A stretch of DNA of 64,000 nucleotides from a virus (IMGVR_UViG_3300032323_000894:11650-75649); one strand, 5' to 3'. Shown: positions 2 to 62,822, counted from the stretch's first letter. Notes: generated by a model not told the origin, from the letters alone. A program made the numbers and translations.

Positions 2-88
2 GCTAACGGCACATTTATTCAGGCCTCTACTACGGGGCCTACTGCTGGTGCTGGAAATAACGGCGACCTATGGATTGTCTATAGTTAA
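2..88 (+). CDS. C-terminal end of a truncated virion/tail protein (ANGTFIQASTTGPTAGAGNNGDLWIVYS*)
   Basis: Open frame from the window edge to TAA at 86-88, overlapping the next ATG (TAATG). The GxNGDLW ending is common in phage fibre proteins. Confidence 0.6.
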   Translation, partial: ANGTFIQASTTGPTAGAGNNGDLWIVYS

Positions 89-2307: not shown

Positions 2308-2341
2308 AGAATTGGTGCAGAAATACCCTAGTAGAATAGGT

Positions 2342-2354
2342 TAGTATAGAAGCT
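2342..2354 (+). promoter_or_regulatory. Putative -10 element (TAGTAT) of a leaderless transcript
   Basis: TANNNT hexamer 7 nt upstream of ATG 2355, with no Shine-Dalgarno. Confidence 0.5.
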
Positions 2355-2579
2355 ATGACATCCATAAATTTTCCAGATACCCCAGCTGTAAACGACATTT
2401 ACACTGTGGGCATTCGTTCATGGATTTGGACTGGGATTGCTTGGGAATCTGTGTCGGCTCCTGGACCCGTTGGTCCTACAGGTCCGCAGGGTGACTCCAT
2501 TTCAAACATTGACGGTGGCATTCCAAACTCGCTTTATGGCGGAATCGTTTCTATTGACGGTGGGAGTGTACTTAGCTAA
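2355..2579 (+). CDS. Small fibre-module protein (FPxxP...W-W-G-W head, short collagen GXY stretch, DGG tail)
   Basis: MTSINFPDTP...SWIWTGIAWES, GPVGPTGPQG, NIDGGIPNSLYGG...IDGGS. Paralog of 2620..2865. Confidence 0.7.
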   Translation: MTSINFPDTPAVNDIYTVGIRSWIWTGIAWESVSAPGPVGPTGPQGDSISNIDGGIPNSLYGGIVSIDGGSVLS

Positions 2580-2619
2580 GAGCACTCCTAGAGTATGCAC
2601 TTAAGGTAAAATAAAAATT

Positions 2620-2865
2620 ATGACATCCATAGACTTTCCTAACTCACCAGCGTTAAATGATGTTTATACTGTAGGTAGTCGTTCTTGGAAATGGAACGGC
2701 ACATTTTGGGAATCAGTAGGTACTACTGGACCCACAGGACCAACTGGCCCAACAGGTGCTGAAGGTCCTGAAGGCCAGTCATTTGCCAACATGGATGGCG
2801 GTAAATCGGGTACTCTATACGGAGGAATAGCACCTATTGTTGGCGGAAGTTCAGGGAGTTTTTAA
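2620..2865 (+). CDS. Small fibre-module protein, paralog of 2355..2579
   Basis: Same N-terminal module, longer GPT collagen stretch, NMDGG...LYGG tail. Confidence 0.7.
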   Translation: MTSIDFPNSPALNDVYTVGSRSWKWNGTFWESVGTTGPTGPTGPTGAEGPEGQSFANMDGGKSGTLYGGIAPIVGGSSGSF

Positions 2866-3125
2866 TGGCAGTACAAATTCAACTGCGCAATGACACCGCA
2901 GCAAACTGGTCTGCAAATAACCCTATTTTGGCTTTGGCCGAAATGGGCGTAGAAAACGATACTGACCAGTTCAAACTGGGTAACGGGGTTGACCCATGGA
3001 ATGACTTGCCATACGGCGGCCTACAAGGTGCTGAAGGCGAATCATTTAACAACATTGACGGTGGAATACCTGCTTCAATGTATGGAGGAATTAATTCTAT
3101 TGATGGTGGAAGTGTAGGAAGCTAA
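2865..3125 (+). CDS. Mtd-N / phage hyaluronidase N-terminal-like domain protein with DGG tail
   Basis: IQLRNDTAANW...NPILALAEMGVENDTDQFKLGNG...WNDLPY motif. Confidence 0.75.
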   Translation: MAVQIQLRNDTAANWSANNPILALAEMGVENDTDQFKLGNGVDPWNDLPYGGLQGAEGESFNNIDGGIPASMYGGINSIDGGSVGS

Positions 3126-3391
3126 TGGCTGTACAAATTCAACTTAGGCGTGGAACCGCCAGCGAATGGACTAGCGCTAACCCAGTCCTAGCAGTTGCCG
3201 AAATGGGCATCGAGACTAACACTAACCAGTTTAAGATTGGTAACGGCTCTACCCCATGGAACTCCCTTCCATACGGTGGTATTGCTGGTGCTGCTGGCCC
3301 TGCTGGTGCTACTGGCCCAGCTGGTGAACGAGGACCTGCGGGAACTGGTGACGCTGGAACAATTAGCTCCTTCCTATTGATGGGGGCTTAA
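3125..3391 (+). CDS. Mtd-N-like domain protein with collagen repeat
   Basis: IQLRRGTASEW...EMGIETNTNQFKIGNG...WNSLPY followed by GXY repeats and ISSFLLMGA. Confidence 0.75.
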   Translation: MAVQIQLRRGTASEWTSANPVLAVAEMGIETNTNQFKIGNGSTPWNSLPYGGIAGAAGPAGATGPAGERGPAGTGDAGTISSFLLMGA

Positions 3392-3392
3392 T

Positions 3393-3725
3393 ATGCCCGC
3401 GGCATACTCTGTATTAGGTCAGAGACGTCCTACCACCTTTGGTACTACTACTCTTTTCACTGCGTCTAGTTCTCTAGGTACTGTAATTTCTACACTATCA
3501 ATTACTAATACCACCGACATTACCTCGTCAGCTAGTGTATACATTCCTACAGTTGCTGGTGGAGGCACAAACGCCAACGCGCTACTGAGAAACGTAGAAA
3601 TTTTTCCAAAGAGCACTGTAGCCCTAACTCTAGGTATCACCCTAGAGGCTGGGCGAGTACTTGACGTACAGTCAAGCGAATCTGGTGCGCTAACATTTCA
3701 AGCTTTCGGAAGTGAGATTTCTTAA
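3393..3725 (+). CDS. Small beta-sandwich virion adaptor-like protein
   Basis: MPxxYSVLGQ...STLSITN...LTLGITL...LTFQAFGSE. Paralogs at 5830 and, in split form, in 3725..5830. Confidence 0.65.
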   Translation: MPAAYSVLGQRRPTTFGTTTLFTASSSLGTVISTLSITNTTDITSSASVYIPTVAGGGTNANALLRNVEIFPKSTVALTLGITLEAGRVLDVQSSESGALTFQAFGSEIS

Positions 3726-5830
3726 TGCCAATTGCATATTCAGTCCTGGCTCAGAGCCAGCCAAGAGCAAACTTCGACGCAGCTACTTGGACTACAAGAG
3801 TATCCTCTACTGGGTCCGCGGCTATTCGTGCAGTTACTTTTGGTGCTAACCAGTACAATAAGCCCCTATTTGTTTCGGGAGACGCAGCAGGCTCTGTAAA
3901 GCTATCTGAAGATGGCATTATGTGGTCCGATGCTGTAACCGTAACTTCTCAGCCAATCAACGCTTTTGTATACACTACTAACTTTAACTCTACATTTAAC
4001 AGCATTAACTGGTGGGTTCTAGGCGCTAACAACGGAATCATTGCTACCTCTTCTGACGCCATGACCTGGACTTCAAGAACCTCTGGTTTTGGAGCTACTG
4101 TGCCTGTTCTTGGTCTTGCTTACGGTGAAGGAAGCTACGTAGCTGTTGGTGGAGCAGGAACTATCACTGCTTCTACTGACGCAGTTACCTGGGTTACACG
4201 TACTTCCCCTGTAGTTACCGCTCTTACTTCCATTACTTATGGTGCTGACACGTTTGTAGCCACTGGTACTGGTGGAGTTGTAACCTCAGATGACGGTGTT
4301 ACTTGGGCCCAAAGAACTGCTGGATTTTCCGTAACCACTATCAACGCTGTTGTATTTGGTAATGGCCTGTTTGTTGTTGGAGACGAAGTTGGTAGGATAA
4401 CCGTTTCTACTAATGGTATTACTTGGACTTCCCGCCCACAAATCCACAATGTTAGAGCGCTGTCTTTTGCTGAAGGCAACTACATTGCAGCAGGAGCTAA
4501 CGGAGCACTTTCCACCTCTACAGACTCCATCACTTGGGTAACACGACAGTCTGCTTTTAACACTAACCTAGGAATTAATGGGGTTGCTTACGGTAGCAAC
4601 GCCTACGGTAACAACATTGTTGCCCTAGTTGGTGACGGACACACAGTTAACAGCGCTCTGCTAGAAAGCGTTCAGGACGCTTACACGGTTCCTGCAGGCT
4701 CTCGCGTAGTGCTCTCAAGCGTTACTATTACCAACCCTACTAATAGGGACGTTCTTGCGGATGTTTACCTGCGAAGCAGGTCCTCTTTCAATGTGGGCCC
4801 TTGGGTACCAAAAACGCTTACAGTCGCTAGCACCCAGATTAACTCAATTGCATTTGGTGGAAATCAGTACATCACCGCTGGAAACAACGGGCAAGTAAGA
4901 ACTTCTACTGACGCAGTTACTTGGGTTGAAAGATTCTCAGGTTTTGGTACCAGCAACGTGAACGCCGCAGTAGTGGGCTCGAGCACCGTTGATAGAGTAG
5001 TATATGCTGTGGGTGGTGTTGGTGGAAGAATTTCTACCTCTACAGACTCAGTAGTATGGTCTACTAGAACTTCTGGTTTTGGAACCAGCTCTGTAAACGC
5101 CCTTAGCTTTGGTCTTAGCACATTTGTTGCTGCTGGAGAACTTGGTGCGTTAACCACCTCTACAGATGGAACTACTTGGACCTCAAGAACTTCTAATTTT
5201 GGGTTTAATAGTGTTCGTGCCCTTACTTTTGGTGGCGGCCTATTTGTGGCTGCAGGAGACTCTGGTACTCTAACCACTTCTACTAATGGGGCTACGTGGA
5301 CAACTCGCTCTCCTCAGTTCGGAACTACTCCAATTTTCTCACTTACTTTTGGAAACAACACCTATGTTGCTGGTGGCGGACTCGGCTTGCTGTCCACCTC
5401 TACCGATGGAATTACTTGGACTTCTCGTCCAGCAGTAGCAACTCTTGTAAGCAGCTCTAACATTCAGGCCCTTACTTTTGGTGATGGAGTGTTTGTGTTG
5501 GCTACGGCTGCGGCGCGAATCGCTACTTCTACTAACGCAATTACTTGGACGCTTAGAACTACAGTGGCTAACTTGTACACTAACTTTAGGTCTGCAGGAT
5601 ACGCTAACGGTGTATTCTTGGTAGGAGACGAGTCAGGAAACTTGGCTATAAACGACAGAAACCTTGTCAATAAGCCAGCTAACGCCCTTGTATTTAGGCA
5701 GGCAATTAAGCCTCGAGACGTCAAGGCTTTCACAGTAGGAGCTACTCTTTCTGAAGGAGACGTAATTTCTTTTGAAAGTTCTGCTAACGCTACACTAACA
5801 TTCCACGCTTTTGGAGGTAGAGAGTTTTAA
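3725..5830 (+). CDS. Double Asp-box beta-propeller protein built into a split adaptor domain
   Basis: Many STDGxTWTSRTSGFG...ALxFGxGxFVAAG repeats in two blocks, with adaptor segments at the N-terminus, middle and C-terminus. Confidence 0.75.
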   Translation: MPIAYSVLAQSQPRANFDAATWTTRVSSTGSAAIRAVTFGANQYNKPLFVSGDAAGSVKLSEDGIMWSDAVTVTSQPINAFVYTTNFNSTFNSINWWVLGANNGIIATSSDAMTWTSRTSGFGATVPVLGLAYGEGSYVAVGGAGTITASTDAVTWVTRTSPVVTALTSITYGADTFVATGTGGVVTSDDGVTWAQRTAGFSVTTINAVVFGNGLFVVGDEVGRITVSTNGITWTSRPQIHNVRALSFAEGNYIAAGANGALSTSTDSITWVTRQSAFNTNLGINGVAYGSNAYGNNIVALVGDGHTVNSALLESVQDAYTVPAGSRVVLSSVTITNPTNRDVLADVYLRSRSSFNVGPWVPKTLTVASTQINSIAFGGNQYITAGNNGQVRTSTDAVTWVERFSGFGTSNVNAAVVGSSTVDRVVYAVGGVGGRISTSTDSVVWSTRTSGFGTSSVNALSFGLSTFVAAGELGALTTSTDGTTWTSRTSNFGFNSVRALTFGGGLFVAAGDSGTLTTSTNGATWTTRSPQFGTTPIFSLTFGNNTYVAGGGLGLLSTSTDGITWTSRPAVATLVSSSNIQALTFGDGVFVLATAAARIATSTNAITWTLRTTVANLYTNFRSAGYANGVFLVGDESGNLAINDRNLVNKPANALVFRQAIKPRDVKAFTVGATLSEGDVISFESSANATLTFHAFGGREF

Positions 5831-6186
5831 TGTCAATAAGTATTCTAGCTAGAACAGCTCCCACAAGTACTACTCCGTTTGCTTTGACGGCCAACCTATT
5901 GTCAGGCTCTACTGAAGCTGGAGTTCTGTCCTCACTGGTAGTCACTAACACCACGTCTTTGCCTGTAGTGTACAGCGTGTACCTAATCTCTAGGAATGGC
6001 CCAGCTACTCCGTCAATAGAGAACGCCCTAGTATTTCAGCAGACAATTAAAAAGAACGAAGTAATAGACCTAACTTATGGTCTAACTTTAGGTTGGGGAA
6101 GTGGCACCCAAGATGTTATTTTTGTAGAATCAGGAACTCCTGACGCTCTAACATTCACCGCATTTGGAAGTAAGGTCGCAATCTAA
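5830..6186 (+). CDS. Small adaptor-like protein, paralog of 3393..3725
   Basis: LSSLVVTN...NALVF...LTYGLTL...LTFTAFGS. Confidence 0.65.
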   Translation: MSISILARTAPTSTTPFALTANLLSGSTEAGVLSSLVVTNTTSLPVVYSVYLISRNGPATPSIENALVFQQTIKKNEVIDLTYGLTLGWGSGTQDVIFVESGTPDALTFTAFGSKVAI

Positions 6187-8363
6187 TGGCTATTAGACAG
6201 TCTAACGTATCTACTCTTTTTACTGCAGGACAGGGTGCCGCAGTTACACCCATATCCAAGACTTACGTAGGTCAGTTTGCTCAGACTACTTATCTTGACA
6301 GATTCAAGATTCCTTCTGGACCTTACGTTGTAAACATGCAGATTCTAGGAACTGAAGTTAACTCTGGTGTAGACATCAGGTTAGATAACCCTGAGGGTCA
6401 GTCAATTGCTAACTACAGGCTAATTAACACAGGTGTCACTACTACTAACTTTACAATTATGACAGACTACGTATTTTTAAATACTACCCCTGATAGGTTT
6501 GTTCCATCTAACCCTAATCTTACTTGGACTACCAGAACTTCTAACTTTGGAACTACAAACATCAACGCTCTGGCGTTTGGTGATGATTTCTTCGCACCTG
6601 GAGTGTCGTCTGGACTGTTGTTGGCAGCAGGAGACAACACTCAGATAAGAACTTCTACAGATGGCGTTACTTGGACTACTAGAACCACTACGTTTGCTAC
6701 CCCTTCAGCCTCTCTTCGAGCAGCTACTTACGGTTTTAACGGAACCAACGGAGTCTACCTTGTTGCAGGTGACTCTGGTCAGATTGCTGGTTCTACAGAT
6801 GGTCTTTCTTGGACTACTAGAGCTGCACCATTTGGAACTACAAACATTAACGGTCTTGGATACGCTAACCGAATCTTTGTTGCCGTAGGTAGCAACGGAA
6901 CTATCTGGACATCTGGAGATACCACTAGCTGGACAGGTAGAACATCTAACGTAGGAACTAACATTCTCCGTTCCGTTACTCACGGACTTGGTTTCCGTTG
7001 GGTTGCTGTTGGTGACAACGGAACAATCACTACTTCTGATGATTCGGCTGTTACTTGGACTGCAAGAACCTCTGGATTTACTAACAGCGATATTCTTACA
7101 GTTTGCTACGGCCGTGACAACACTTACGTTGCCGCAGGTACTCAGGGTCGCTTGGCTACCTCGTTTAACGGTGTTGACCAGTGGATTCAGAGAACTACTG
7201 GTTTTGGTACCGAGACAATTACTTCGGTAACTTATGGCGATGACATCTATGTAGCTGTCGGAGCTGCTGGAACCGTGGCCTCATCTGTTGACGGTATTAC
7301 TTGGGTCAGACAGCCTTCAAATACTTGGGCTTCTACCCCTCTTCGCGCGGTTACTTGGGCGCCTATCGGAACTTCAACTGGTACTTACGTAACTTCTGGT
7401 GATGCAGGTACTCTGGCAACAGCGGTACCAGCTAGCACTGAGCGAGTTTCTGTCTCTAGATTGTTCGTTAACTTTAATGATGTTGGATTCATCGGTCGAG
7501 ACGGTGTCTCAGGAGCAGTTACTTGGGCTACTGGTGGCTACGGCGATGGATTGTTCTTTATCGGTGGTAGCGGTTCGACATTCTCTACTTCTACCAACGG
7601 CTTAACTTGGACAGCTCGAGGAAACGGACTCAGTGGAGATACCCGTGGAACAGCTTTTGGTAACAACACCTATGTTTCTGCTGGAACTGCTGGCCGTGTA
7701 ACCACTTCTACAGACAGCATTTCTTGGACTGCTAGAACTCCTAACTTTGGAACTAGCGCAATCAACAGCCTTGTTTATGGAAATGGTCTGTTTGTACTCG
7801 CAGGTGAGGCTGGTCAAGTAAGAACCTCCGCAGACGCGGTTATCTGGACAACTCGTGACGGTGGTTTTGGACCACAGACAGTTAACGCGCTACTTTACGC
7901 TAACTCTCAGAACCTATTTGTAGCCGCTGGAAACGCAGCAACAATTTCTACCTCTACCAACGGTATTCTGTGGACATCACGTACTTCTGGTTACGCTGTA
8001 GACGTTAACCTTCGTGCGCTTACTTACGGAAATGGTTTGTACGTAGTTGCTGGAACTAACGGTAACTTGGCAGTTTCTACTAACGCAATTACTTGGACCA
8101 CTAGAAACGCAAACTTTGGAACTAGCACCATTAACGCTCTAACTTTCCACAGAAACTTGTTTATGGCTGTAGGAGACGCTGGTCAGATTAGGACTTCAAC
8201 CGACACTATTAGCTGGACATCTCGTGTATCAAACACTGGTGGTCAGTTCTTAGGCGCGGTGTCTGCTTTAGGAACCTACTTGGCAATCGGTGTTAGTGGA
8301 TTGGTCCATTCAAAGCAGCAGGGTGCAGCCCTGGTTCAGTTCGCGCCAGTAGTTAGTAACTAA
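6186..8363 (+). CDS. Double Asp-box beta-propeller virion protein
   Basis: Roughly 13-14 repeats of STDGxTWTTRTSNFGTTxINALxYG. Confidence 0.75.
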   Translation: MAIRQSNVSTLFTAGQGAAVTPISKTYVGQFAQTTYLDRFKIPSGPYVVNMQILGTEVNSGVDIRLDNPEGQSIANYRLINTGVTTTNFTIMTDYVFLNTTPDRFVPSNPNLTWTTRTSNFGTTNINALAFGDDFFAPGVSSGLLLAAGDNTQIRTSTDGVTWTTRTTTFATPSASLRAATYGFNGTNGVYLVAGDSGQIAGSTDGLSWTTRAAPFGTTNINGLGYANRIFVAVGSNGTIWTSGDTTSWTGRTSNVGTNILRSVTHGLGFRWVAVGDNGTITTSDDSAVTWTARTSGFTNSDILTVCYGRDNTYVAAGTQGRLATSFNGVDQWIQRTTGFGTETITSVTYGDDIYVAVGAAGTVASSVDGITWVRQPSNTWASTPLRAVTWAPIGTSTGTYVTSGDAGTLATAVPASTERVSVSRLFVNFNDVGFIGRDGVSGAVTWATGGYGDGLFFIGGSGSTFSTSTNGLTWTARGNGLSGDTRGTAFGNNTYVSAGTAGRVTTSTDSISWTARTPNFGTSAINSLVYGNGLFVLAGEAGQVRTSADAVIWTTRDGGFGPQTVNALLYANSQNLFVAAGNAATISTSTNGILWTSRTSGYAVDVNLRALTYGNGLYVVAGTNGNLAVSTNAITWTTRNANFGTSTINALTFHRNLFMAVGDAGQIRTSTDTISWTSRVSNTGGQFLGAVSALGTYLAIGVSGLVHSKQQGAALVQFAPVVSN

Positions 8364-8372
8364 GGAGTTAAA

Positions 8373-9722
8373 TTGGCCATTTCACAGATAGTTAACCCAA
8401 ACCCAGTAACGGGTGTACCTGTTGGTACTGAGCTAGTTCACTCTAGCTACATTAGGACCACTCAGAACAAGATTATTACTAAGGACCGAGTTCCTGCGTC
8501 TATTCCTCCTGGTACATACGCTGTTGTAGGTATGCGTACTCGTGGAGCGAACAACGTTCTAGTTACTTTTAGGGATGCAGATGATGAGACGGTATTCGGC
8601 TATCCTGTGCTTCCTGCTGCCAGCAGGCTTCTTACCGAATTTCCGTCTAACCAAGCTACTATGGTTCAGCTTATGGTTGTTGACAAAGAAGTAACCTCTG
8701 TAACTTACAACTACTCTTGGCAGAGTTGGACAGAGCGAACCCACTCTATGAGCACAACTACTGGCCATATCAATGCTATGGCTTATGCTAATGGTTATTT
8801 TGTTGCTGTGGGAAACAACGTCAACCAGTTCTCTGTCACTAACTCTTCTGATGGAATTACCTGGACAGTAAGACTAAACAGCGCCGCCTCGGCCTCAGCG
8901 TTTGCTCTTACTTACGGAAATTACCGTGGAAATAAAACTTGGGTTGCCGCTGGTACTGGTGGAATTATTTTTAGCTCTACAGACAGCAACACGTGGATTC
9001 AAAGAACCTCCCCTACTGTACAGCAACTACAGGCTGCTGCGTTTGGTGTTTCTACATTCCTTCTAGCGGGAGCGTCTGGCGCACTCGTCAGCTCTACTGA
9101 CGGATTTACTTGGATTAACAGAACCTCAGGATTTGGTGTTACTCCAATTAACGCTTTGGTTTTTGGAAATGGCGTTTTTGCCATGGCTGGAGATGGAGGT
9201 AGACTTTCTACTTCTACAGACGGCATTAACTGGACTACTAGAACTTCAGGATTTGCTACTACGTCTATTCGTGCCCTTGCATTTGGTAACGGGTTGTTCC
9301 TAGCTGGTGGAGATAACGGTGTCCTAACTACCTCAACAGATGCGATTACTTGGACTACAAGAAACGCAAACTTTGGTACCACCGTAATTAGGTCTATCAT
9401 TTGGGGAGAAGGCCTTTACGTTCTTGCTGGTGATAACGGTTCAATTAGGGTATCGACAGACGGCTATGAGTGGCAAGTTAGACCGCAGCTATTTACTGGT
9501 ACCCAGATTAGAGCCCTAACTTACGGCTCTGGTATCGGTATTTTTAGTAGCCCAGTATCGGGTACTTTGCCTCCTCTTAACACCTACCCAGCTCAAATGA
9601 CTCCTATCCTAGGAAACACAGGTGGCCAGTACATTGCAGCTGGAGGAAACGGTACTTCTGGAGGCCGTTTGGCCCAGTCTGAACAGGGATTTGAGGCGAC
9701 AGTTCAGGTTTACAGAGTTTAA
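8373..9722 (+). CDS. Asp-box beta-propeller virion protein
   Basis: TTG start with AAGGAG RBS. About 7 STDGxxWTxRTSGF repeats. Confidence 0.75.
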   Translation: MAISQIVNPNPVTGVPVGTELVHSSYIRTTQNKIITKDRVPASIPPGTYAVVGMRTRGANNVLVTFRDADDETVFGYPVLPAASRLLTEFPSNQATMVQLMVVDKEVTSVTYNYSWQSWTERTHSMSTTTGHINAMAYANGYFVAVGNNVNQFSVTNSSDGITWTVRLNSAASASAFALTYGNYRGNKTWVAAGTGGIIFSSTDSNTWIQRTSPTVQQLQAAAFGVSTFLLAGASGALVSSTDGFTWINRTSGFGVTPINALVFGNGVFAMAGDGGRLSTSTDGINWTTRTSGFATTSIRALAFGNGLFLAGGDNGVLTTSTDAITWTTRNANFGTTVIRSIIWGEGLYVLAGDNGSIRVSTDGYEWQVRPQLFTGTQIRALTYGSGIGIFSSPVSGTLPPLNTYPAQMTPILGNTGGQYIAAGGNGTSGGRLAQSEQGFEATVQVYRV

Positions 9723-9746
9723 AACTGTAGTAGTATACTAATTACT

Positions 9747-54772: not shown

Positions 54773-55134
54773 TGGCTGGCTCATTCGACGGTAACTACGA
54801 CAGAACAAAACCGTGGCGTAGTAACATTACTGACGCCAACGGTCGTCCTAAGTGGACCTACAACGGCCCTTGGGCATCAAACGAGCAGCGCCTAACACAG
54901 CAGGCGCTGATGGTTGCCTTAATTCCAGGAGCAGACATTCAACAAATGGTTCGCCCTAATCTTCCTCAGATTCGTTTATTTCCAGACAGATTTGGATATG
55001 GGCCTCGCACACAGCCTGAGATTGAAGACGTAGTAAGCATCGACCGTGTCTACACAGAGCCTCGAGTTAGCTGGTACTCAGGAGGAGTTGCAGGGTATTC
55101 TGGTAGCAGTAGAAATAGCTTGGAAGGTAACTAA
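54772..55134 (+). CDS. Hypothetical protein
   Basis: TAATG coupled. Confidence 0.6.
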   Translation: MAGSFDGNYDRTKPWRSNITDANGRPKWTYNGPWASNEQRLTQQALMVALIPGADIQQMVRPNLPQIRLFPDRFGYGPRTQPEIEDVVSIDRVYTEPRVSWYSGGVAGYSGSSRNSLEGN

Positions 55135-56192
55135 TGGCTAATAGAAATTCTTCGTTTGGTGAAGGACAGAGTGGCGCTAAAGGCGCAGAGACAGGCATTA
55201 TTAAGCCTGCCGTAGACCGACCTGCCTTGCAGAGCAAGGGTCCTGGAGCCCCGAACCAGCCAAGCCCAGTTCAGCCAAAAGTTCTTGACCCAAACAAGAT
55301 GAACATCATTTCTGACCCTAAGCCAATTGCTGAAGAAGAGCTAGCCACTTCCCGTCGTAGGTATGTTCTTGGTGGAGGAAATGTAGGTGAGTCTAAAGTT
55401 GCTCGCCACATTACTACTCCTACCGATAGAAATGCTAATTCTAAAGAAGTATTACAGAAGCTAAACGAGCATTTTAATGTACTAAACTCTTTTGCTACTA
55501 CTCATTCAGGAGCAGTTCAAACTGCTGTTAGAGCGATGCCAGGAGCACACAAAGACCATGGCAGAGCAACTATGAGCCTAATGTCTGCTTCAGAAAACCT
55601 TGCGCTTGCCAGAACCGCCTTTTCAGACCGAAACTCAGCTAAAGGAAATGAGCACCTTCAAAAAGCCTCTAGGAATTTAGTTTCTGCGCACGGGTCGCTA
55701 AACAGCACCAATGTAAGAGAAGTTACTGGTGTAGAAGTTCCTATTCATAAAGATGAGCTAGGTGCATGGCAGAGCCACGCATCGAACCTGCCTTCGTTTA
55801 GACGTCAAGGAAAGCCTTTTGACAGGGTACAAATTGGCAAAGCCATTGTCAGACCAACCTCTCCTGCAGCCGCAGAAACTGAGCAGGGTGCAAAAGGAAC
55901 TCTTCTAGGAGATAAAGTAAAGAGGGCCAGAACTGGTACTCCAAGAACTCCAAGATGGGAAAGAAGCCTGCCATCTATGCCTGAAAAATCCGAAAAAGGC
56001 ACTGGCGTAATCAACACCGCCACTAAAGGTACCGCTGCTGGAACTACTGGGCAAAACGACCCTCGTAGAAAAGCCAGTAGCACCAACAGGATTAACGTAA
56101 GCCTTCCAAAAACAAACCTTCCAAAGATTGGTGACACCAGTAGGCCAGCTAAAAAGCCTATGAAACCTGGGGACACAGTAGAGGGTAAGTAG
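55134..56192 (+). CDS. Basic, largely disordered protein with a His-containing helical core
   Basis: TAATG coupled. Contains a diverged helical motif shared with 56194 and 57227. Confidence 0.6.
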   Translation: MANRNSSFGEGQSGAKGAETGIIKPAVDRPALQSKGPGAPNQPSPVQPKVLDPNKMNIISDPKPIAEEELATSRRRYVLGGGNVGESKVARHITTPTDRNANSKEVLQKLNEHFNVLNSFATTHSGAVQTAVRAMPGAHKDHGRATMSLMSASENLALARTAFSDRNSAKGNEHLQKASRNLVSAHGSLNSTNVREVTGVEVPIHKDELGAWQSHASNLPSFRRQGKPFDRVQIGKAIVRPTSPAAAETEQGAKGTLLGDKVKRARTGTPRTPRWERSLPSMPEKSEKGTGVINTATKGTAAGTTGQNDPRRKASSTNRINVSLPKTNLPKIGDTSRPAKKPMKPGDTVEGK

Positions 56193-56193
56193 T

Positions 56194-57024
56194 ATGCCTC
56201 AAACAAGTAAAGAAAAAGAAGCAAGATACCGTGCAAATCTTGCAGAAGCTAGAGAGCTTAAGAAATCAAACAAGCCTTTAGAAGCGCACCACATAAGTGC
56301 GCTAAACAAGTACAGCAGAAAGCTTGACAACAGAAAAGCTGGAAGACAAAACAAGCAAGCACAAGATGTAGTAGAGGCTACTAAAAAACTTTCTACACTA
56401 CGTAGCGCACCGAGCAAGCCTCAAGAACCTGCGTTTACTCCCACCACATTTAAAGGCGCTAGAACTCGTACTATTTCTAATTTCCCTAACACTATTAACG
56501 AAGACAGTACCCACCATGACGCTATGTCAGAGGCAATGGAGCACCTGTCAAATAAACTGAATGACGTTCCTAGCCACATCACAAAGAACATAGACAATTT
56601 GTTGGCTAAAGGAGCTGACCACCTAAGGGATTCTCAAACAGCCCATGAAAGTGGTGACATAACGGGTGCCAAGGAGCACATGCAAAAAGCTGCGCACCAC
56701 TTCACCCTTGCAACGTCTGAGATGGGTAACCGAGGAGTATTAGGAAACACAGCGGACAAAATAAAGTCGTTTGTTAGAGCTAATGCAAACTCGTACATTT
56801 CCAGTACTGTTCCAGGAACAGGCGCTGCTCCTCACGAATCTTTTACACCACCCAAAAAGCCTAGAGCTAAAGCCGCAGCCGTAAAATCAACCTCAGATAG
56901 TTTAGCGAGCTCGTTTGATTCATTGCCTTCTGAGCACAGTTTTGGCAGCTCGTTGGGTAAGCAATTTACTGGCAAACACCACATGGACAGCGCCGTAATT
57001 GGAATGATGGAAGGCAAGTACTAA
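56194..57024 (+). CDS. Basic His-rich helical protein
   Basis: AHESGDITGAKEHMQKAAHHFTLA. Confidence 0.6.
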   Translation: MPQTSKEKEARYRANLAEARELKKSNKPLEAHHISALNKYSRKLDNRKAGRQNKQAQDVVEATKKLSTLRSAPSKPQEPAFTPTTFKGARTRTISNFPNTINEDSTHHDAMSEAMEHLSNKLNDVPSHITKNIDNLLAKGADHLRDSQTAHESGDITGAKEHMQKAAHHFTLATSEMGNRGVLGNTADKIKSFVRANANSYISSTVPGTGAAPHESFTPPKKPRAKAAAVKSTSDSLASSFDSLPSEHSFGSSLGKQFTGKHHMDSAVIGMMEGKY

Positions 57025-57227
57025 TGAACGGTGAAGATGGCGCTCTAACCCTAGAGCTACAGGCGTACAAGATTGCTCAAAATGCTACCCAGTACAGAGG
57101 GTCTCACCCTTGCCCAATGTGCGGAATTATTATTAATCCTACCCAGTACCTCTACAGTGCAATGGGCATTTGCCCACCATGTGGAGAAGAGCGTAAAGCC
57201 AAAAGGATTAAGGGGAAGATGGCCTAA
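57024..57227 (+). CDS. Small zinc-finger protein
   Basis: CPMCG...CPPC. Confidence 0.6.
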   Translation: MNGEDGALTLELQAYKIAQNATQYRGSHPCPMCGIIINPTQYLYSAMGICPPCGEERKAKRIKGKMA

Positions 57228-57556
57228 TGGACCAATCCTCATTGACCATGATGTCTGAACAGGCTAACTTGTTAGCTACTGTAGCTACTCATCCAAAGGC
57301 CGTCAGACTAGCCCAGAAAGCCCTAGGATGCTCCGTAGAGGGGTTAAAAGCTCATTCTAGTGGAGATTATACTGGAGCCTCTATGCACGCCGCATACGCC
57401 GCCGCTCACTTAACCGATGCGGCTAAACTACACGTTTCAACTCTGGACGACTTTCCAGAGCCACAAATGCTAGACTTAGCCCATCTAGGAAAAGCTCACT
57501 CAATGCACCAAGATTACGTAGACGCTATTAACGAAGGAAAGAAAAATGGCAGTTAA
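57227..57556 (+). CDS. His-rich helical protein
   Basis: AHSSGDYTGASMHAAYAAAHLTDA. Confidence 0.6.
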   Translation: MDQSSLTMMSEQANLLATVATHPKAVRLAQKALGCSVEGLKAHSSGDYTGASMHAAYAAAHLTDAAKLHVSTLDDFPEPQMLDLAHLGKAHSMHQDYVDAINEGKKNGS

Positions 57557-57802: not shown

Positions 57803-58366
57803 ATGTCAGACGCACCACTAATCGGCACAAGAGAAATGAAACACGAAGGGCCGTTGATTCGGCTGCTAATGTGTTTTGTGTGTAACACCCTGGAGGAGTT
57901 GCCAGATTACGATGGCCCAGTAGAACAAGATTATCTACTAGAAATCTCTATTGAGAAGCATGTGTTTCCATCTGGAGAGCCCCACAAAGGTAAGCTGTTT
58001 AAGCTGCCAGTAAAGTCATGGGCAACCGCTGACCAGAGAAAAGCTATTCTAGGCCAGCTGCAAACTGGTGGTAGCCGAGGGCTAGACGAACTAGACCCAG
58101 ATAAGTCGTTTTACGACACCAAAATGACATTCATGGAAGACGCCATGAAATGCTACGCTGCCCATAACCGCCCAAAGATTGAGTGCCCAGATTACGGAAG
58201 CCCTCAAAAGAGGTTGTTACCTAATTCTGCAAAAGAACGAGCTGAGCTTAATCTTCCTAAGCCAGAGCACGCAGATGGGCCCAAGATTTATCTGTGCAAT
58301 TTCTGCCCAATGCACTCAACTGTAACTACTAATAACCGACTAAAACAAGGACTATACAAAGCATGA
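57803..58366 (+). CDS. Zinc-binding hypothetical protein
   Basis: CFVC, C..HNRP...C.DY, YLCNFCP. AAGGAG RBS. Confidence 0.6.
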   Translation: MSDAPLIGTREMKHEGPLIRLLMCFVCNTLEELPDYDGPVEQDYLLEISIEKHVFPSGEPHKGKLFKLPVKSWATADQRKAILGQLQTGGSRGLDELDPDKSFYDTKMTFMEDAMKCYAAHNRPKIECPDYGSPQKRLLPNSAKERAELNLPKPEHADGPKIYLCNFCPMHSTVTTNNRLKQGLYKA

Positions 58367-58641
58367 GTGAAGTAGAAACATATTTTTTAGTAGCAGTAAA
58401 CAAGGACGCCACCCTAGCAACTTACGCAGAGTTGCCTGAAGAAGGCCTGACTCGTGAGAGGCCAGCTAACAATTACGACGTTTATCAGGCCGCAAAGCAG
58501 GTTGTAGATGAGTTTGAGCAAACAATGTTCGCAAACAAAGTGGCCCAGATTGTCATGGCAAACCTTAATCCAGCACCTGAGCCTGTGTCCGACAAGGTAA
58601 AAGACAAGCTAAAGGAACGTGGCATTCAGCCCGAGAAATAA
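58363..58641 (+). CDS. Hypothetical protein
   Basis: ATGA overlap. Confidence 0.55.
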   Translation: MSEVETYFLVAVNKDATLATYAELPEEGLTRERPANNYDVYQAAKQVVDEFEQTMFANKVAQIVMANLNPAPEPVSDKVKDKLKERGIQPEK

Positions 58642-58665: not shown

Positions 58666-59568
58666 ATGACTGAGTTTGGTTCGTTTCCGACATCCTATTT
58701 CAGCACACCTGCGCCAGAACTAGACCCCACCCTGTTTGAGGGTAGACAAATCCGTTCATGGGTCCGCCAAGGAATCCGTCACATTCTTACTGATTTCCTG
58801 TACAAGAGATACCGCCACCCAGAGCTGTGGGCACACCCATGGTTGGCTGGTTCCGCAGTCTCGTACCAATGGCAAGCTGCACGGCAGCCAGGGGACCTCG
58901 ATTGTTTAATTGGCGTAGATTACATTCAATTTAGAAAAGCAAATCCAGAATTTAAAGGACTGACAGATAAAGAAATCTCAGAGCAGTTAAACGAAGAGTT
59001 CAGAGAAGAGCTGCACCCTCAGACCAGCGACTGGAACGGATTTGAGTTGACGTTTTACGTAAACCCTGGGGCAACAGACATTCGTACAATAAAGCCGTAT
59101 GCGGCGTATGACCTAAAGTATGACGAGTGGACAGTCCACCCAGACCCGCAGCAGATAGCTGCAGTCAATGAAGATTGGGAACGGGTTATCAGTTCTGATA
59201 AGGATTCTACAAAGCAAATATACACTAGGTTTACCCAAGCTGTTCAAGACCTAAAGCAGTCAGTAAGTGAACCGAACCGCAGAAATGCTGAAGCTAGGTT
59301 GGCCGCTGCACATCAGCAGGCAGAAGCATTGTTCCACGAGATACACTCCAATAGGCGTGAGGCGTTCTCTACTACAGGGGCAGGATATAACGATTTCAAC
59401 AACTACCGTTGGCAAGCAGGAAAGCGTGAAGGCGTAATCCAGTCCCTACGTGAAATACGTGAGTACATGAGCAACATCCAGCAGGAACAGAACAAATCAA
59501 AGTACGGGGTAGAATTCCCAGACTCCAGCACCTTAGTTCGAAGGGCAGCCACGTACAGAGCTAAATGA
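58666..59568 (+). CDS. Pol-beta-superfamily nucleotidyltransferase
   Basis: LAGSAVSYQW......GDLDCLIGVD (hGS...DxD), FELTFYV, AYDL...EW. Confidence 0.7.
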   Translation: MTEFGSFPTSYFSTPAPELDPTLFEGRQIRSWVRQGIRHILTDFLYKRYRHPELWAHPWLAGSAVSYQWQAARQPGDLDCLIGVDYIQFRKANPEFKGLTDKEISEQLNEEFREELHPQTSDWNGFELTFYVNPGATDIRTIKPYAAYDLKYDEWTVHPDPQQIAAVNEDWERVISSDKDSTKQIYTRFTQAVQDLKQSVSEPNRRNAEARLAAAHQQAEALFHEIHSNRREAFSTTGAGYNDFNNYRWQAGKREGVIQSLREIREYMSNIQQEQNKSKYGVEFPDSSTLVRRAATYRAK

Positions 59569-59657
59569 ACACGTGTATAAAATGTGGGCATGAGCTCGAC
59601 ATGGGTATTTGTATAAAAGATTCATGTAAGTGTGATTGTTCAGACGATAGTTACTAG
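59565..59657 (+). CDS. 30-aa Cys-rich micro-ORF (MNTCIKCGHELDMGICIKDSCKCDCSDDSY)
   Basis: ATGA overlap with the NTase stop. 6 Cys. Not in the track. Confidence 0.5.
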   Translation: MNTCIKCGHELDMGICIKDSCKCDCSDDSY

Positions 59658-59666
59658 GATTAAAAT

Positions 59667-60152
59667 ATGGAAATACTTGTAGAACTAGACGGCGTATTAC
59701 GTAACCAAGCGGACGCCCCCATCCCAACGGGCGTAATTTTGTACCAAACTCTTACAGCCTATAACCGCATGACCATAGCCTCCTCAATGAGCAAAGAGGA
59801 CACAGAGCGGTGGTTAAACATCCACAAGATTGTTGATTTCGATTTAATGATTGACAATTCGGCCCACCTTGAGGGCGAAAATCTCGTGGAGCGACAGATT
59901 AACGTAGCCAGAGCACGTGGTGGAGTTGCGTTGTTTATAACTGCCAACCCCGAATCATGGGTTTATGCGTTTAATCAAGGAATCCCTTGTGCCATGTTTG
60001 GTGTACCAGCGTACCAAAGAGTGGAGTTTAGGCCAGATGCGCCTAAAAGAGTCAGGTCCTGGGACAGCATTGTAGACGCCGTAGAGAAGCAGAACGAATT
60101 AAAGACAAAAGACGTTCGTCTACTACGTACCGAGGGATTGAATTTTGAGTAA
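59667..60152 (+). CDS. HAD-like fold protein
   Basis: ILVELDGVL (motif I with E replacing the first D), TERWL, LFITANP. Confidence 0.55.
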   Translation: MEILVELDGVLRNQADAPIPTGVILYQTLTAYNRMTIASSMSKEDTERWLNIHKIVDFDLMIDNSAHLEGENLVERQINVARARGGVALFITANPESWVYAFNQGIPCAMFGVPAYQRVEFRPDAPKRVRSWDSIVDAVEKQNELKTKDVRLLRTEGLNFE

Positions 60153-60288
60153 GCTGCGCTGCCTCCTGGGCCTGCACGCAAAAGAAGTTACGGGCCAATG
60201 TCCCGTAACTAGATTTAAAGTATGGGAATGCCAAACCTGCGGTAAAACCAATAAAAGAAAGCACTCCGCTGGTAGCAGGTTTAACTAA
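60145..60288 (+). CDS. 47-aa zinc-finger-like micro-protein (MSKLRCLLGLH...C...CQTCGK)
   Basis: TTG start overlapping the previous stop, and a TAATG overlap into the next gene. Confidence 0.5.
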   Translation: MSKLRCLLGLHAKEVTGQCPVTRFKVWECQTCGKTNKRKHSAGSRFN

Positions 60289-61793
60289 TGATTATTTTTG
60301 GTGGGGTAGAGATACCCTCGAATAGAACCCTTTTAGAGCGCAGCGGCGTAAGTAACGTGATGCTCAATTACTGGGGGTTACGTAAAAGAGGATTGCCTAA
60401 GACAAAGGCATATTTAATTGGAGAGCATTTCCTACCAGATATGAAAGTATGGGTAGATTCAGGGGCAACTCAGGCGGACAAAGCAAACCTGTCGTCAAGA
60501 GAGTTGGAAGAATACGCCGCAGATTACGAAGAGTTTGTAGCCCTGAATTATGAGCGAATTGAGGGGTGGGTAGAGTTTGATTCCCAAGTCATGGGATTGC
60601 CGTGGATTCAGCAGCAGCGTGCAGCGTTTGAGAACGACCCCAAGATGTGGGTGGTTTGGCACGAGGCCTACAATACACTCCTACTACAGCAGTGGGCAGG
60701 GTCCTACGATAACATCGCGATACCAGGGGACGCGGTAGAAAACATGACCTCGTTGGCGGGTATTGTACGTTCGTTGAAAACAAAGCACAATGTACAGGTT
60801 CACGCCTTAGCCACTGCAAAGCCAGATAACCTACGGCAGGTGCCGTTTGATACAGCCAGTACACTATCGTGGTTGTCCCCCATGCGTAGGGGGGAAACAA
60901 TCGTTTGGGATAATACCAAGCTGGTTCGATACCCGAAGAAAATGAAAGCTCAAGCGAGGCCAAGATATAAGGCCATAGTTGAAAAGGCTGGGTTAGATTT
61001 CCAGAAGTTTATAGACGACGACACCCTAGAAGCGACTAAAGTGGCCGTATGGTCCTATTTACAGTTAGAGAAAACAATGGATAAAGACAAGCCAGACCTG
61101 AGAGTACTTAAAGGTGGCAAGAAAGACGAACTGTTAGCTGATAACAGTGATGACACCCTATACACAGGTTTGATGGATTTGATGGGGGGTGCTTCTAATA
61201 ACAGTGGTCAAGAAGTGCGGAAACTTGAGGGGTCAGAAGTGGTACAAAGAGACCCTTCTGAAATGACATCACTCCCAGTATTTGGGTACCAGATGAAGAC
61301 AGTCGTCGAGACTGATGATGAGGGTAGGGACATACTAAAAGAGGTTCCTGTTGTACACAATCAATACTCTAGTTTACGTCAGTGTAACACTTGCTTTGTA
61401 GCAACTAACTGCCCTGCTTTTAAGGAAAACAATACGTGTGCTTTTAATCTACCAGTAGAGGTAAAGACTAAGGACCAGCTTAAGGGATTGCTTACCGCAA
61501 TCATTGAAATGCAGGGCCAAAGAGTAGCGTTTATGCGGTTTGCGGAAGAAACTAACGGTGGCTATGCGGACCCAAATGTGAGCCAAGAAATAGATAGATT
61601 GTTTAAGTTAGTGTCCTCTATGAAAGAACTAGAGTCTAATAAAGAGTTTGTAAGGATTACGGCAGAACGCCAGACCTCTGGTGGAGTGTTGTCTGCTATT
61701 TTTGGAGATAGAGCGCAGGCCCTAAAAGAAATGCCTCAGCCGTTAAACGAACAACAGACAACTATGATTATCAAGGACTCTTTAGAGGATTAG
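60288..61793 (+). CDS. TGT/DpdA-like TIM-barrel domain fused to a 4-Cys cluster and helical C-terminal domain
   Basis: MLNYW, VWVDSGA, EFD, VVWH, VHALA, PFDTASTLSW...RGE. Then CNTC.....C........C. Confidence 0.55.
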   Translation: MIIFGGVEIPSNRTLLERSGVSNVMLNYWGLRKRGLPKTKAYLIGEHFLPDMKVWVDSGATQADKANLSSRELEEYAADYEEFVALNYERIEGWVEFDSQVMGLPWIQQQRAAFENDPKMWVVWHEAYNTLLLQQWAGSYDNIAIPGDAVENMTSLAGIVRSLKTKHNVQVHALATAKPDNLRQVPFDTASTLSWLSPMRRGETIVWDNTKLVRYPKKMKAQARPRYKAIVEKAGLDFQKFIDDDTLEATKVAVWSYLQLEKTMDKDKPDLRVLKGGKKDELLADNSDDTLYTGLMDLMGGASNNSGQEVRKLEGSEVVQRDPSEMTSLPVFGYQMKTVVETDDEGRDILKEVPVVHNQYSSLRQCNTCFVATNCPAFKENNTCAFNLPVEVKTKDQLKGLLTAIIEMQGQRVAFMRFAEETNGGYADPNVSQEIDRLFKLVSSMKELESNKEFVRITAERQTSGGVLSAIFGDRAQALKEMPQPLNEQQTTMIIKDSLED

Positions 61794-61881: not shown

Positions 61882-62163
61882 CTACTTCTTCTTCTTCTTC
61901 TTAGGTTGCAGGGCTAACTTGATAATCATTGTCTTGTTGTTGGATGTACGGCGAACTCTGTCTCTAAGTATCCTGAGTTCCTCGGGGTTCTTACCTCCCC
62001 AGATACCATACTCTTCCTTATGGAACACAGCCCATGTTAGACACTGCTCTACTATTGGGCATGAGTTACATAGTGTCTTAGCCCTTATCTCGTTCTCTCG
62101 GTTCAATTCGTAAAAGGTGTCAATGGGTTCCCCCACACACTTTGCATCAGTGGTATCAAACAT
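61882..62163 (-). CDS. whiB: Second WhiB-family transcription factor with a poly-Lys tail
   Basis: AKC...AKTLCNSCPIVEQCL...YGIWGG. Start moved to ATG 62163 with GAGGAG RBS. Confidence 0.88.
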   Translation of the reverse strand: MFDTTDAKCVGEPIDTFYELNRENEIRAKTLCNSCPIVEQCLTWAVFHKEEYGIWGGKNPEELRILRDRVRRTSNNKTMIIKLALQPKKKKKK

Positions 62164-62662
62164 CTTTCTCCTCATCTGTTGGCCATACGTAATCGTATGC
62201 TGTTGGTTCTATCCCTGTATCTTCTGGCCAGTTGAATTGACTATACCATGCATAGTCCTTGGCCAGTAAAGCTTGGCGGTGGCTGGAGGCTACCTCTTCG
62301 TACTTAGCTTTGTCTACCATCCAGTCAGGCTTACCTTCTGCGTACACTAGGGCATTCTCGTAAGCTACTTTCATAGTCTGTGTAGCCTTCTCTGCGATGG
62401 TGGTATTGTATCCCCGAGCTACCCACTCATCTGTCATAGCTATGACGTAGGAGTATAGCTCGTTCTCGTGGTCACGCCACATCTTTACTGCTGGATGATT
62501 ACGCCAACCACGTGCTCTACGGAACTCTCCCTGAGGGTCAAGCTCTAATAGATTCATTAGTATCTGCCAGCCTTCTAGGGCTTGCTTGTTGAGCCTCTTG
62601 TTGTCAAGAGTCTTAGCTATTTCTTTGTAATCGTTTGTTGCTATTGGTAGAAACGTCTGCAT
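62156..62662 (-). CDS. Pyrimidine-dimer DNA glycosylase-like protein (MSMEG_6728/DenV-related)
   Basis: MQTFLP...LDNKRLNKQ..E, GWRNHPAVKMW, EW..RGY, SHR.ALL.KD, YVWP. Confidence 0.8.
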   Translation of the reverse strand: MQTFLPIATNDYKEIAKTLDNKRLNKQALEGWQILMNLLELDPQGEFRRARGWRNHPAVKMWRDHENELYSYVIAMTDEWVARGYNTTIAEKATQTMKVAYENALVYAEGKPDWMVDKAKYEEVASSHRQALLAKDYAWYSQFNWPEDTGIEPTAYDYVWPTDEEKDV

Positions 62663-62663
62663 G

Positions 62664-62822
62664 TTATTCCTCTCTGCTTTGTTTCCAGTCCTCGTACATC
62701 TCGTCACACATACATGGGAAGTACCCACAGATACAAATGGGCTCATGCTCTGTACAATCTATCGAGCATTCATCACACTGGTCACAAGTGATGGTCATTT
62801 CCATACGGTCGTTCCAGCCCAT
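62664..62822 (-). CDS. 52-aa acidic Cys-rich micro-protein (8 Cys)
   Basis: MGWNDRMEMTITCDQCDECSIDC...CICGYFPCMCDEMYEDWKQSREE. TAATG coupled. Confidence 0.5.
   Translation of the reverse strand: MGWNDRMEMTITCDQCDECSIDCTEHEPICICGYFPCMCDEMYEDWKQSREE

Follow-up and report, generated by a model that had tools for sequence, protein, structure and literature searches.

Does a gene resembling tRNA-guanine transglycosylase (TGT), placed beside a nucleotidyltransferase (NTase) gene in a phage genome, belong to a pathway for nucleic-acid modification? The question was raised by a stretch of viral DNA of 64,000 nucleotides (IMGVR_UViG_3300032323_000894:11650-75649; the whole stretch is called the window below). 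Positions 58,666 to 61,793 of the window had been read, from the sequence alone, as a candidate nucleotide or base-modification system. The five co-oriented open reading frames (ORFs) of this original prediction were all present as open frames. Two of them are micro-ORFs, and the other three encode the proteins treated here: the NTase A, the HAD-like protein B and protein C, in which a TGT-like barrel is fused to a tail with four Cys (Cys4). A conserved gene for a protein of 187 residues lies upstream. The barrel of C belongs, as judged from its model, to the TGT/DpdA superfamily, and the nucleophile Asp of DpdA is replaced by Ser in it. Our tentative reading, whose chances we put somewhat short of even, is that C recognises DNA, possibly in connection with packaging, and does not insert 7-deazaguanine.

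The barrel of protein C and its nucleophile site

Protein C is a fusion protein of 501 residues encoded on the plus strand (60288..61793). Its structure was modelled with AlphaFold2 on 69 diverse homologs. The barrel (residues 1-270) was predicted with a local distance difference test (pLDDT) above 90, the linker (residues 272-315) was disordered, and the C-terminal domain was modelled with moderate confidence. The barrel was then ranked by a VIA search against 48,161 representative PDB chains, and the top five matches all belonged to the TGT superfamily. Archaeosine TGT (1iq8) gave a Z of 17.7 (253 residues, root-mean-square deviation (rmsd) 3.4), Cap10 (9ntn_B) a Z of 16.3 (240 residues, rmsd 4.0), and DpdA (7ui4_A) a Z of 16.3 (257 residues). 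In addition, bacterial TGT (3unt) and QTRT2 (6fv5) reached 16.2 and 15.0, respectively, and unrelated TIM barrels did not exceed 13.2. The Foldseek result was in agreement, with a TGT-type match of E 4e-6 and probability 1.0. On the strength of the model, residues 1-271 (60288..61100, plus strand) are a true TIM barrel of the TGT/DpdA superfamily, as had been predicted. The Pfam TGT model missed C, and Pfam gave no TGT match across the whole record from which the window was taken. Furthermore, A, B and C had no match in Pfam or in sequence searches of the PDB, and nothing meaningful was returned by PADLOC or NCBIfam. PHROG 887 (phrog_887) matched C over its full length, and members of the family are named 'queuine tRNA-ribosyltransferase' and 'dpdA-like' in PHROG and GenBank.

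The strand-8 motif S191-T-L-S-W195 (60858..60872, plus strand) lies at the site of the nucleophile Asp of DpdA and TGT. In an hhalign profile comparison with the validated DpdA of Rosebush (probability 61%), Ser191 stood opposite the Asp of VDSSGW and the S-x-x-W aligned. The DSGA, ALD/FD and FHG/VHA motifs matched as well, with D57-S58-G59 of C on GDSGA. In the DpdA of S. Montevideo, the D-S-G motif provides the general acid/base, Asp95. BLASTP against gp21 of the Bacillus phage BCD7 likewise placed Ser191 opposite the Asp of GDSTTW. These two alignments bear out the earlier observation that the usual DS-x-SW motif reads ST-L-SW here. Across the 69 homologs, the nucleophile column held S, G, A or T, and position 191 was G or A in 18 of them. 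The nucleophile Asp was kept in 1 of 150 representatives of the C family (50% clustering), and was kept also in BCD7. Scans of viral and metagenome contigs with this single Asp-retaining representative, P0379, found only relatives of at most 37% identity, and a scan with P0425 found nothing.

The close clade of C comprised 74 distinct sequences of 64-78% identity. Ser191 was present in 73 of the 74, and S191-T-L-S-W was nearly fixed. An acidic residue stood at position 57 throughout (43 D, 31 E), D98 was invariant, and H172 was found in 72 sequences. D98 and H172 aligned with ALD and FHG of Rosebush DpdA, at the place of the residues by which DpdA recognises the base (Asp130 and His181-Gly182). 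Among the 69 diverse homologs, position 57 was D in 49, and many members of the family had H, Y, E or N there. As far as the alignments tell, the active site of C is constrained, yet unlike that of DpdA.

Mutation of the nucleophile Asp256 has been reported to abolish guanine exchange in the DpdA of S. Montevideo (PMC10164549). Because the nucleophile Asp is lost, C should be incapable of the known double-displacement guanine exchange. Compared with the DpdA of S. Montevideo (7UI4) and Rosebush gp2 (DpdA1), C has in common the barrel, the DSG motif, the base-recognition Asp, the H-G motif and the S-x-x-W motif. Unlike them, it possesses neither the nucleophile (Asp256) nor a Cys insertion after strand 8, and is not accompanied by preQ0 genes. 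The insertion after strand 8 carries the structural zinc site in DpdA. Cys was absent from residues 196-330 of C, and the sole Cys cluster was located about 170 residues beyond strand 8, behind the disordered linker. A ParB-like partner was not noticed among the neighbours examined, with no search aimed at it.

The genes for a deazaguanine precursor were searched for with profile models. QueC, QueD/PTPS, FolE and radical-SAM proteins had no match in the whole 75.6-kb record, which extends to the record the earlier remark that no queC, queD or folE gene was recognised in the window. A full deazaguanine pathway elsewhere had been named as another possible explanation of the TGT-like gene. QueC and QueD were found neither in the complete relatives G001, G002 and G004 nor in the Streptomyces phage BRock, and the BCD7 control was positive (E ~1e-34), which speaks against such a pathway. 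QueC was also not found in the relative G003 or in the Streptomyces phage GiJojo. Moreover, the window contained no tRNA genes, so a tRNA-centred reading gains no support.

From its names in PHROG and GenBank, C might work as an ordinary DpdA and place preQ0 supplied by the host, or some other 7-deazaguanine, in the phage DNA. DpdA has been treated as a signature gene of 7-deazaguanine DNA modification (PMC10516641). Hutinet et al. (2019) described BCD7 as having DpdA with preQ0 genes and BRock as a DpdA-only phage, and such phages might draw on host precursors (PMC6884629). However, the Asp that is essential in DpdA (PMC10164549) is absent from C. In addition, no deazaguanine was found in the DNA of Orion, another DpdA-only phage, whose mycobacterial hosts are without the pathway (PMC6884629), although the DpdA of Orion lies outside the C family; no member of this family was found in Orion or Rosebush, which are cluster B mycobacteriophages. 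Insertion of a 7-deazaguanine by C is regarded as very improbable.

The two groups of relatives for which a DpdA had been listed were compared with the present phage. BCD7 gp21 (YP_007005872), a long-form DpdA of phrog_887, resembled C in having a TGT-type barrel, a linker, CX2CX5CX8C and a helical tail, and both proteins had the E8, DSG, FD/LD, HG and G-E motifs. The large terminase of BCD7 was 40% identical to that of this phage. Unlike C, gp21 has kept the Asp (GDSTTW), is encoded beside FolE, QueC, QueE and QueD, and is 757 residues long with a far longer stretch between barrel and tail. The families of A, B and the upstream gene were absent from the BCD7 genome. BRock gp36 and GiJojo gp181 ('dpdA-like tRNA-guanine transglycosylase') belonged to the same family as C and had the same A, B and upstream neighbours. 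BRock gp36, like C, had no Asp at the nucleophile position, and BRock and GiJojo had no QueC. They differed from the present phage in an extra gene (gp37) between B and C and in an endolysin gene inside the unit. The C family is common and goes under the names DpdA and queuine tRNA-ribosyltransferase, although both the nucleophile and a precursor pathway are missing. Genome surveys in which it is counted as DpdA would overestimate the number of modified phages. The family also bears on the 'singleton DpdA' question of 2019 (PMC6884629).

The Cys4 tail and its terminase relatives

The tail of C (residues 316-501; 61233..61790, plus strand) consists of a Cys4 cluster followed by long helices, and this domain is common to long-form DpdA, putative small terminases and stand-alone phage proteins of about 250 residues. 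The cluster, C366-x2-C369-x5-C375(P376)-x8-C384 (61383..61439, plus strand), is a putative metal or iron-sulfur site. The four Cys, which the original prediction had placed in a domain fused to the barrel, were invariant in the 69 diverse and the 74 close homologs, and Pro376 was nearly so.

The tail matched the C-terminal part of gp9 of the Gordonia phage Demosthenes by hhalign (probability 90.7%, E 1e-6), and the two agreed in the spacing of their Cys. Demosthenes gp9 has 465 residues and is a member of phrog_6902/phrog_16015, 'terminase small subunit'. It differed from C in that its N-terminal 290 residues had no barrel match by profile comparison, and in that its gene overlaps the large-terminase gene, which the C gene does not. 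Furthermore, a structural match to the tail in BFVD was the 'Terminase small subunit' of the Gordonia phage Jumbo (E 1.5e-6). The Cys4 domain was also found as a stand-alone protein with no barrel, of 251 residues in the Bacteroides phage BS162P1 and of 253 residues in the gut phage record MT835482.

In a collection of 50,697 phage records, clear relatives of the large terminase were found in BRock-like phages, BCD7, MT835482 and BS162P1. The stronger tblastn matches to the Cys4 domain were the same four: BRock-like phages, BCD7, MT835482 and BS162P1. The Gordonia matches to the Cys4 domain were weak by tblastn and were confirmed by profile comparison only. Judging from these matches, it is the Cys4 tail, and not the barrel, that is retained throughout the large-terminase lineage.

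Inteins with LAGLIDADG domains were present in four C homologs. They were inserted at the [ED]203/T204 junction (P0451), at C369 (P0444 and P0460) and at C384 (P0399). Inteins favour conserved functional sites of conserved proteins. Their location at conserved sites would therefore fit an important role for the G-[ED]-T motif and the Cys cluster. Two other homologs, P0364 and P0373, carried an N-terminal HNH endonuclease.

The Cys cluster also permits another explanation, in which C removes bases from DNA as a hydrolytic glycosylase. Once the covalent nucleophile was lost, base exchange would have become base removal, directed at host DNA or employed in repair, and the Cys4 site would hold an iron-sulfur cluster like those of EndoIII and MutY. 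The CX2CX5C spacing followed by Cys-Pro is one that we take to resemble the iron-sulfur sites of DNA enzymes. The acidic residue of DSG and the base-recognition residues are retained in C, and a pyrimidine-dimer glycosylase gene is located just downstream on the other strand. However, the Cys4 domain occurs also without the barrel, and the general acid was not conserved family-wide. We consider a glycosylase unlikely.

The gene unit, the partners of C and its role

Linkage was investigated in 82 loci that bear C. B was present in 80 of them, A in 74 and the upstream gene in 70, in the same order, and the loci missing one of the three were mostly cut off upstream of C. The linkage of these four genes is far beyond chance. 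All four were also found in BRock and GiJojo, at about 30-38% identity. A was 35% identical to BRock gp39 (E 6e-61), B was 32% identical to gp38 (E 6e-24), and C was 32% identical to gp36 over its full length. The upstream gene (57803..58366, plus strand) encodes a putative zinc ribbon with two far-apart CxxC pairs, which had no match in Pfam, PHROG and PDB searches; its identity was 34-36% in BRock (gp42) and GiJojo, and 37% in G004. The gene order was kept even in the distant contig L092, at 23-36% identity. Conservation of the trio of A, B and C had been set beforehand as a test of the original prediction, and in BRock, GiJojo and L092 the trio was kept together. An endolysin-type gene, annotated or recognised by eye, was seen in or beside the unit in two distant lineages, those of G004 and BRock (L091:5949-6929 and L001:2265-3197); in this window it does not lie there.

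The families are large, metagenomic and without Pfam domains. A had 1358 matches and B had 221, whereas 1619 proteins matched C in a word-based search, and the C family comprised 871 cluster representatives at 50% identity. C was 78% identical to its homolog in the complete relative G001, compared with 83% for the large terminase, 82% for the capsid protein, 79% for the portal and 79% for the recombinase. By this measure, C is a core gene that is conserved about like the terminase, portal and capsid genes. In G004, which is 100 kb long and rated complete, the upstream gene, B and C were present and A was absent. The gene content of this relative indicates that the NTase is not obligatory and is dispensable in at least one lineage.

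Protein A (58666..59568, plus strand; 300 residues) has a core at about residues 20-165 and a C-terminal three-helix bundle at residues 167-283. G62-S63, D77-x-D79 (D77-L78-D79) and E127 were invariant in 32 homologs and were kept in BRock gp39. From its position on the next strand, E127 is probably the third carboxylate. The AlphaFold2 model (pLDDT 82) showed the expected order of helix, strand, GS and the strand with DLD, followed by the three-helix bundle. Foldseek gave only weak matches, of which many were to NTases of similar build, namely CdnE, AAD(9), ANT(6) and the CCA-adding enzyme (E 0.02-0.2). The matches of two VIA searches were all to the C-terminal helix bundle and were uninformative on the catalytic core. 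In the ESM Atlas, A scored 0.95 to viral clusters with PF01909. The motifs, the order of secondary structure, the weak Foldseek matches and the language-model lead together support, with moderate confidence, the NTase of Pol-beta type that had been proposed. BCD7 gp15, a weak RlaP-like NTase, was considered as a counterpart and was unrelated to A. Residues 8-25 of A (58687-58740) held the motif YFS-x-P-x3-LDP-x-LF, which was also present in the NTases of BRock, GiJojo and L092 (overall identity about 35-38%). This segment may serve in docking; the model confidence there was low to middling.

An NTase next to a TGT fold recalls type IV cyclic oligonucleotide-based antiphage signalling systems (CBASS), to which the locus had been likened. 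By this analogy, the barrel would bind the NTase or its nucleobase-tagged part and control its activity, and the pair would be a phage nucleotide synthase for signalling or counter-defence. Cap10, in the Cap10-CdnD complex, was among the top structural matches of the barrel (Z 16.3), several NTases of the CD-NTase type were among the weak Foldseek matches of A (CdnE, CdnB, CdnD and CdnC; E 0.02-0.25, probability 0.1-0.23), and the N-terminal motif of A was strongly conserved in BRock, GiJojo and L092. However, the Z values were tied within the superfamily, with no preference for Cap10. Cap10 requires the nucleophile D248, and the N-terminus of the CD-NTases in type IV CBASS reads M(G/S)G(G/S)GG (bioRxiv 10.1101/2025.04.06.647259). 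Unlike Cap10, which keeps its nucleophile and needs a QueC-like Cap9 and the Gly-rich N-terminus of its partner, C has Ser191 in the D248 column and A begins with MTEFGSF. A QueC-like Cap9 was not found (PF06508 without match), no PADLOC CD-NTase model matched A at E up to 1, and G004 keeps C without A. The analogy to CBASS breaks down at the features that define type IV, and we judge a Cap10-like role of C to be improbable.

Protein B (59667..60152, plus strand; 161 residues) is a HAD-like protein, perhaps of NIF type, with the motif I E-L-D-G-V. No match was found in Pfam, PDB and NCBIfam. The ESM Atlas gave leads of about 0.90 to NIF/HAD clusters, and the GiJojo homolog is annotated as 'hydrolase'; on this lead and this annotation, the HAD-like fold is weakly supported. 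Within motif I (E6-L-D8-G-V), 35 close homologs were compared at position 6: 23 had E, 10 had D, and Q and N were found once each. In BRock, L091 and L092, the nucleophile position was occupied by V, T or H. Since this position is variable, the family as a whole cannot be expected to rely on a HAD-type aspartyl-phosphate intermediate. The HAD-like fold that had been proposed thus stays a weak lead, and the nucleophile Asp of a HAD enzyme is not conserved. Complex prediction for B and C scored 0.00 and gave no answer, and it argues neither for nor against binding.

Compared with the other explanations, a still-catalytic, non-canonical modification of nucleic acid or nucleotides is a serious one. 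The NTase would activate or transfer a nucleotide, the barrel would exchange or remove a base through another nucleophile or dissociatively, and the HAD-like protein would process a phosphorylated intermediate. The gene linkage is tight and ancient, the catalytic residues of the NTase are intact, and the pocket residues and S-T-L-S-W are nearly invariant in the close clade. Moreover, the conserved acidic residues E8 and [ED]203 are located near the barrel mouth, with an intein exactly after [ED]203, and the unit stands 3' of genes for DNA polymerase, recombinase, exonuclease and RuvC. However, G or A at position 191 in about a quarter of the diverse homologs (18 of 69) means that this residue is no general nucleophile, and D57 has given way to H, Y, E or N in many members. 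In addition, distant lineages carry V, T or H in place of the HAD nucleophile, one complete relative is without the NTase, and genes to supply a substrate were not found. Because the pocket is constrained and E8 and [ED]203 hardly vary, this explanation deserves serious weight, and we hold it possible with a rather low probability. The working modification pathway of the original prediction was not supported: the nucleophile Asp is lost across the TGT-like family, B is without a conserved nucleophile, and G004 is without the NTase. By their sequences, the only enzyme with intact catalytic residues, the NTase, is dispensable in at least one lineage, and both constant partners, B and C, are without a textbook nucleophile.

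The reading preferred here is that C recognises DNA. The unit is a core gene set of a group of large actinophages, made up of the zinc-ribbon protein, usually the NTase, the HAD-like protein and the 501-residue fusion. C derives from the long-form DpdA of phages (phrog_887), and its barrel has kept the acidic residue of DSG, the base-recognition Asp and the His, with loss of the Asp that attacks the nucleotide C1'. The barrel may serve as a DNA-recognition domain through its guanine pocket. The essential activity is placed, putatively, in the C-terminal Cys4-helical domain, because this domain is common to the Gordonia proteins at the small-terminase position and to all four groups with a similar large terminase. 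C may then recognise DNA at a late step, for example while the DNA is packaged or processed. Its partners, specific to actinophages, would be B and the zinc-ribbon protein, and the NTase would play an accessory part. DNA binding by C, the link to packaging and the contacts between the proteins are all putative. Precedents for TGT folds without base exchange in nucleic acid were among the structural matches: QTRT2 is non-catalytic, and Cap10 is remodeled and binds a partner protein, with Cap10 working together with an NTase. QTRT2 pairs with a catalytic paralog, and none was found in this phage with the Pfam TGT model.

Several observations weigh against DNA recognition and a packaging link. 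In the close clade, purifying selection on the barrel pocket and S-T-L-S-W is strong, as it would also be in an enzyme that is still active. Two acidic positions of C, E8 and [ED]203, hardly vary. The 'small terminase' label of the Gordonia proteins comes from annotation and position, not from experiment. Common descent alone may explain the co-occurrence of the Cys4 domain with this type of large terminase. The large-terminase gene (contig 1063-2688) and the C gene (contig 71937-73442) are not adjacent, and the C gene is also apart from the large terminase in G001, BRock, GiJojo, BCD7 and BS162P1. Furthermore, a conserved ORF of 132 residues, a homolog of GiJojo gp59, lies directly 5' of the large terminase and is the ordinary positional candidate for a small terminase. 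Neither Pfam nor PHROGs gave it a name. A gene for a KTSC-domain protein accompanies it (contig 53-985 for both), and the two are conserved with GiJojo gp58 and gp59. A small terminase near the large terminase was not annotated in the stretches of GiJojo and BCD7 that were read, and none was recognised among the ORFs scanned here.

A bolder form of the DNA-recognition reading is possible but doubtful. Here, a wide phage lineage would have recruited a DpdA fold for DNA recognition in a core Cys4 protein that resembles small terminases. In BCD7-like phages, whose barrel keeps the catalytic Asp, the fusion would couple modification to packaging. In actinophages, the barrel and the HAD-like protein, both without their nucleophile, would form a new DNA-handling complex with the zinc-ribbon protein and the NTase. 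Apart from this bolder form, a core gene that is targeted by inteins and linked through its tail to putative packaging proteins would, if this holds, point to an essential function so far overlooked in the abundant actinophages of freshwater and soil, and to a TGT fold put to a new use. The function of C is directly testable in its cultivable relatives BRock and GiJojo.

Genome setting and neighbouring features

The source record is a linear IMG/VR virus with an estimated completeness of 78%, and the window covers its bases 11650-75649. The genes for the large terminase, portal and major capsid protein lie just 5' of the window in the same genome. A contractile tail module, including a tail sheath gene, is located at 22-38 kb of the window, and is followed by a replication and recombination block with helicase (42536), DNA polymerase (45857), UvsX/RecA-like recombinase (48662), Cas4-like exonuclease (50560) and RuvC (52590). 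The A-B-C unit forms the end of this long plus-strand block. A WhiB regulator gene (E 3e-16), overlapping the pyrimidine-dimer DNA glycosylase gene (E 3e-19), occupies 61882-62746 on the minus strand, and the two converge on the end of C. Both were found again near C in many relatives. The WhiB and glycosylase genes indicate an actinobacterial host, and the source is a freshwater phage of actinobacteria.

The small ORFs of the unit were conserved to different degrees. The ORF of 92 residues between the zinc-ribbon gene and the NTase gene (58363..58641, plus strand) was weakly conserved (42 of 82 loci, 29-59% identity) and matched no family in Pfam and PHROG. The Cys-rich micro-ORF of 30 residues (59565..59657, plus strand), which overlaps the end of A, is probably a real small gene, because tblastn homologs were found in 28 of the 82 related loci, at 43-77% identity. 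The putative CxxC micro-ORF of 47 residues in the B-C spacer (60145..60288, plus strand) had a counterpart in none of the 82 loci, most of which have B directly or almost directly next to C, and it gave only a marginal PHROG match (E 0.0075). Of the two micro-ORFs first predicted, the Cys-rich one was thus retained, whereas the zinc-finger one appears specific to this window. The same spacer contained a minus-strand hairpin with a 9-bp stem and a T-run (60186-60210). In the scan for promoters and terminators, the number of sites was not above that of shuffled sequence.

Two other regions of the window were examined. Just 5' of the unit, at 55134-57556, ORFs of 352, 276 and 109 residues were found, the first of which is rich in Ser, Pro and Lys by eye. 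None of the three had a PHROG match or a homolog in G001 or G004. A block of about 16 kb at 88-16145, which separates the head genes from the tail genes, contains large ORFs (739, 701, 725 and 449 residues, and others). When the four largest were scanned, no named PHROG was matched; two were unmatched and two fell in families of unknown function. With nearly no homologs in the complete relatives G001 and G004, this block looks like a lineage-specific insertion.

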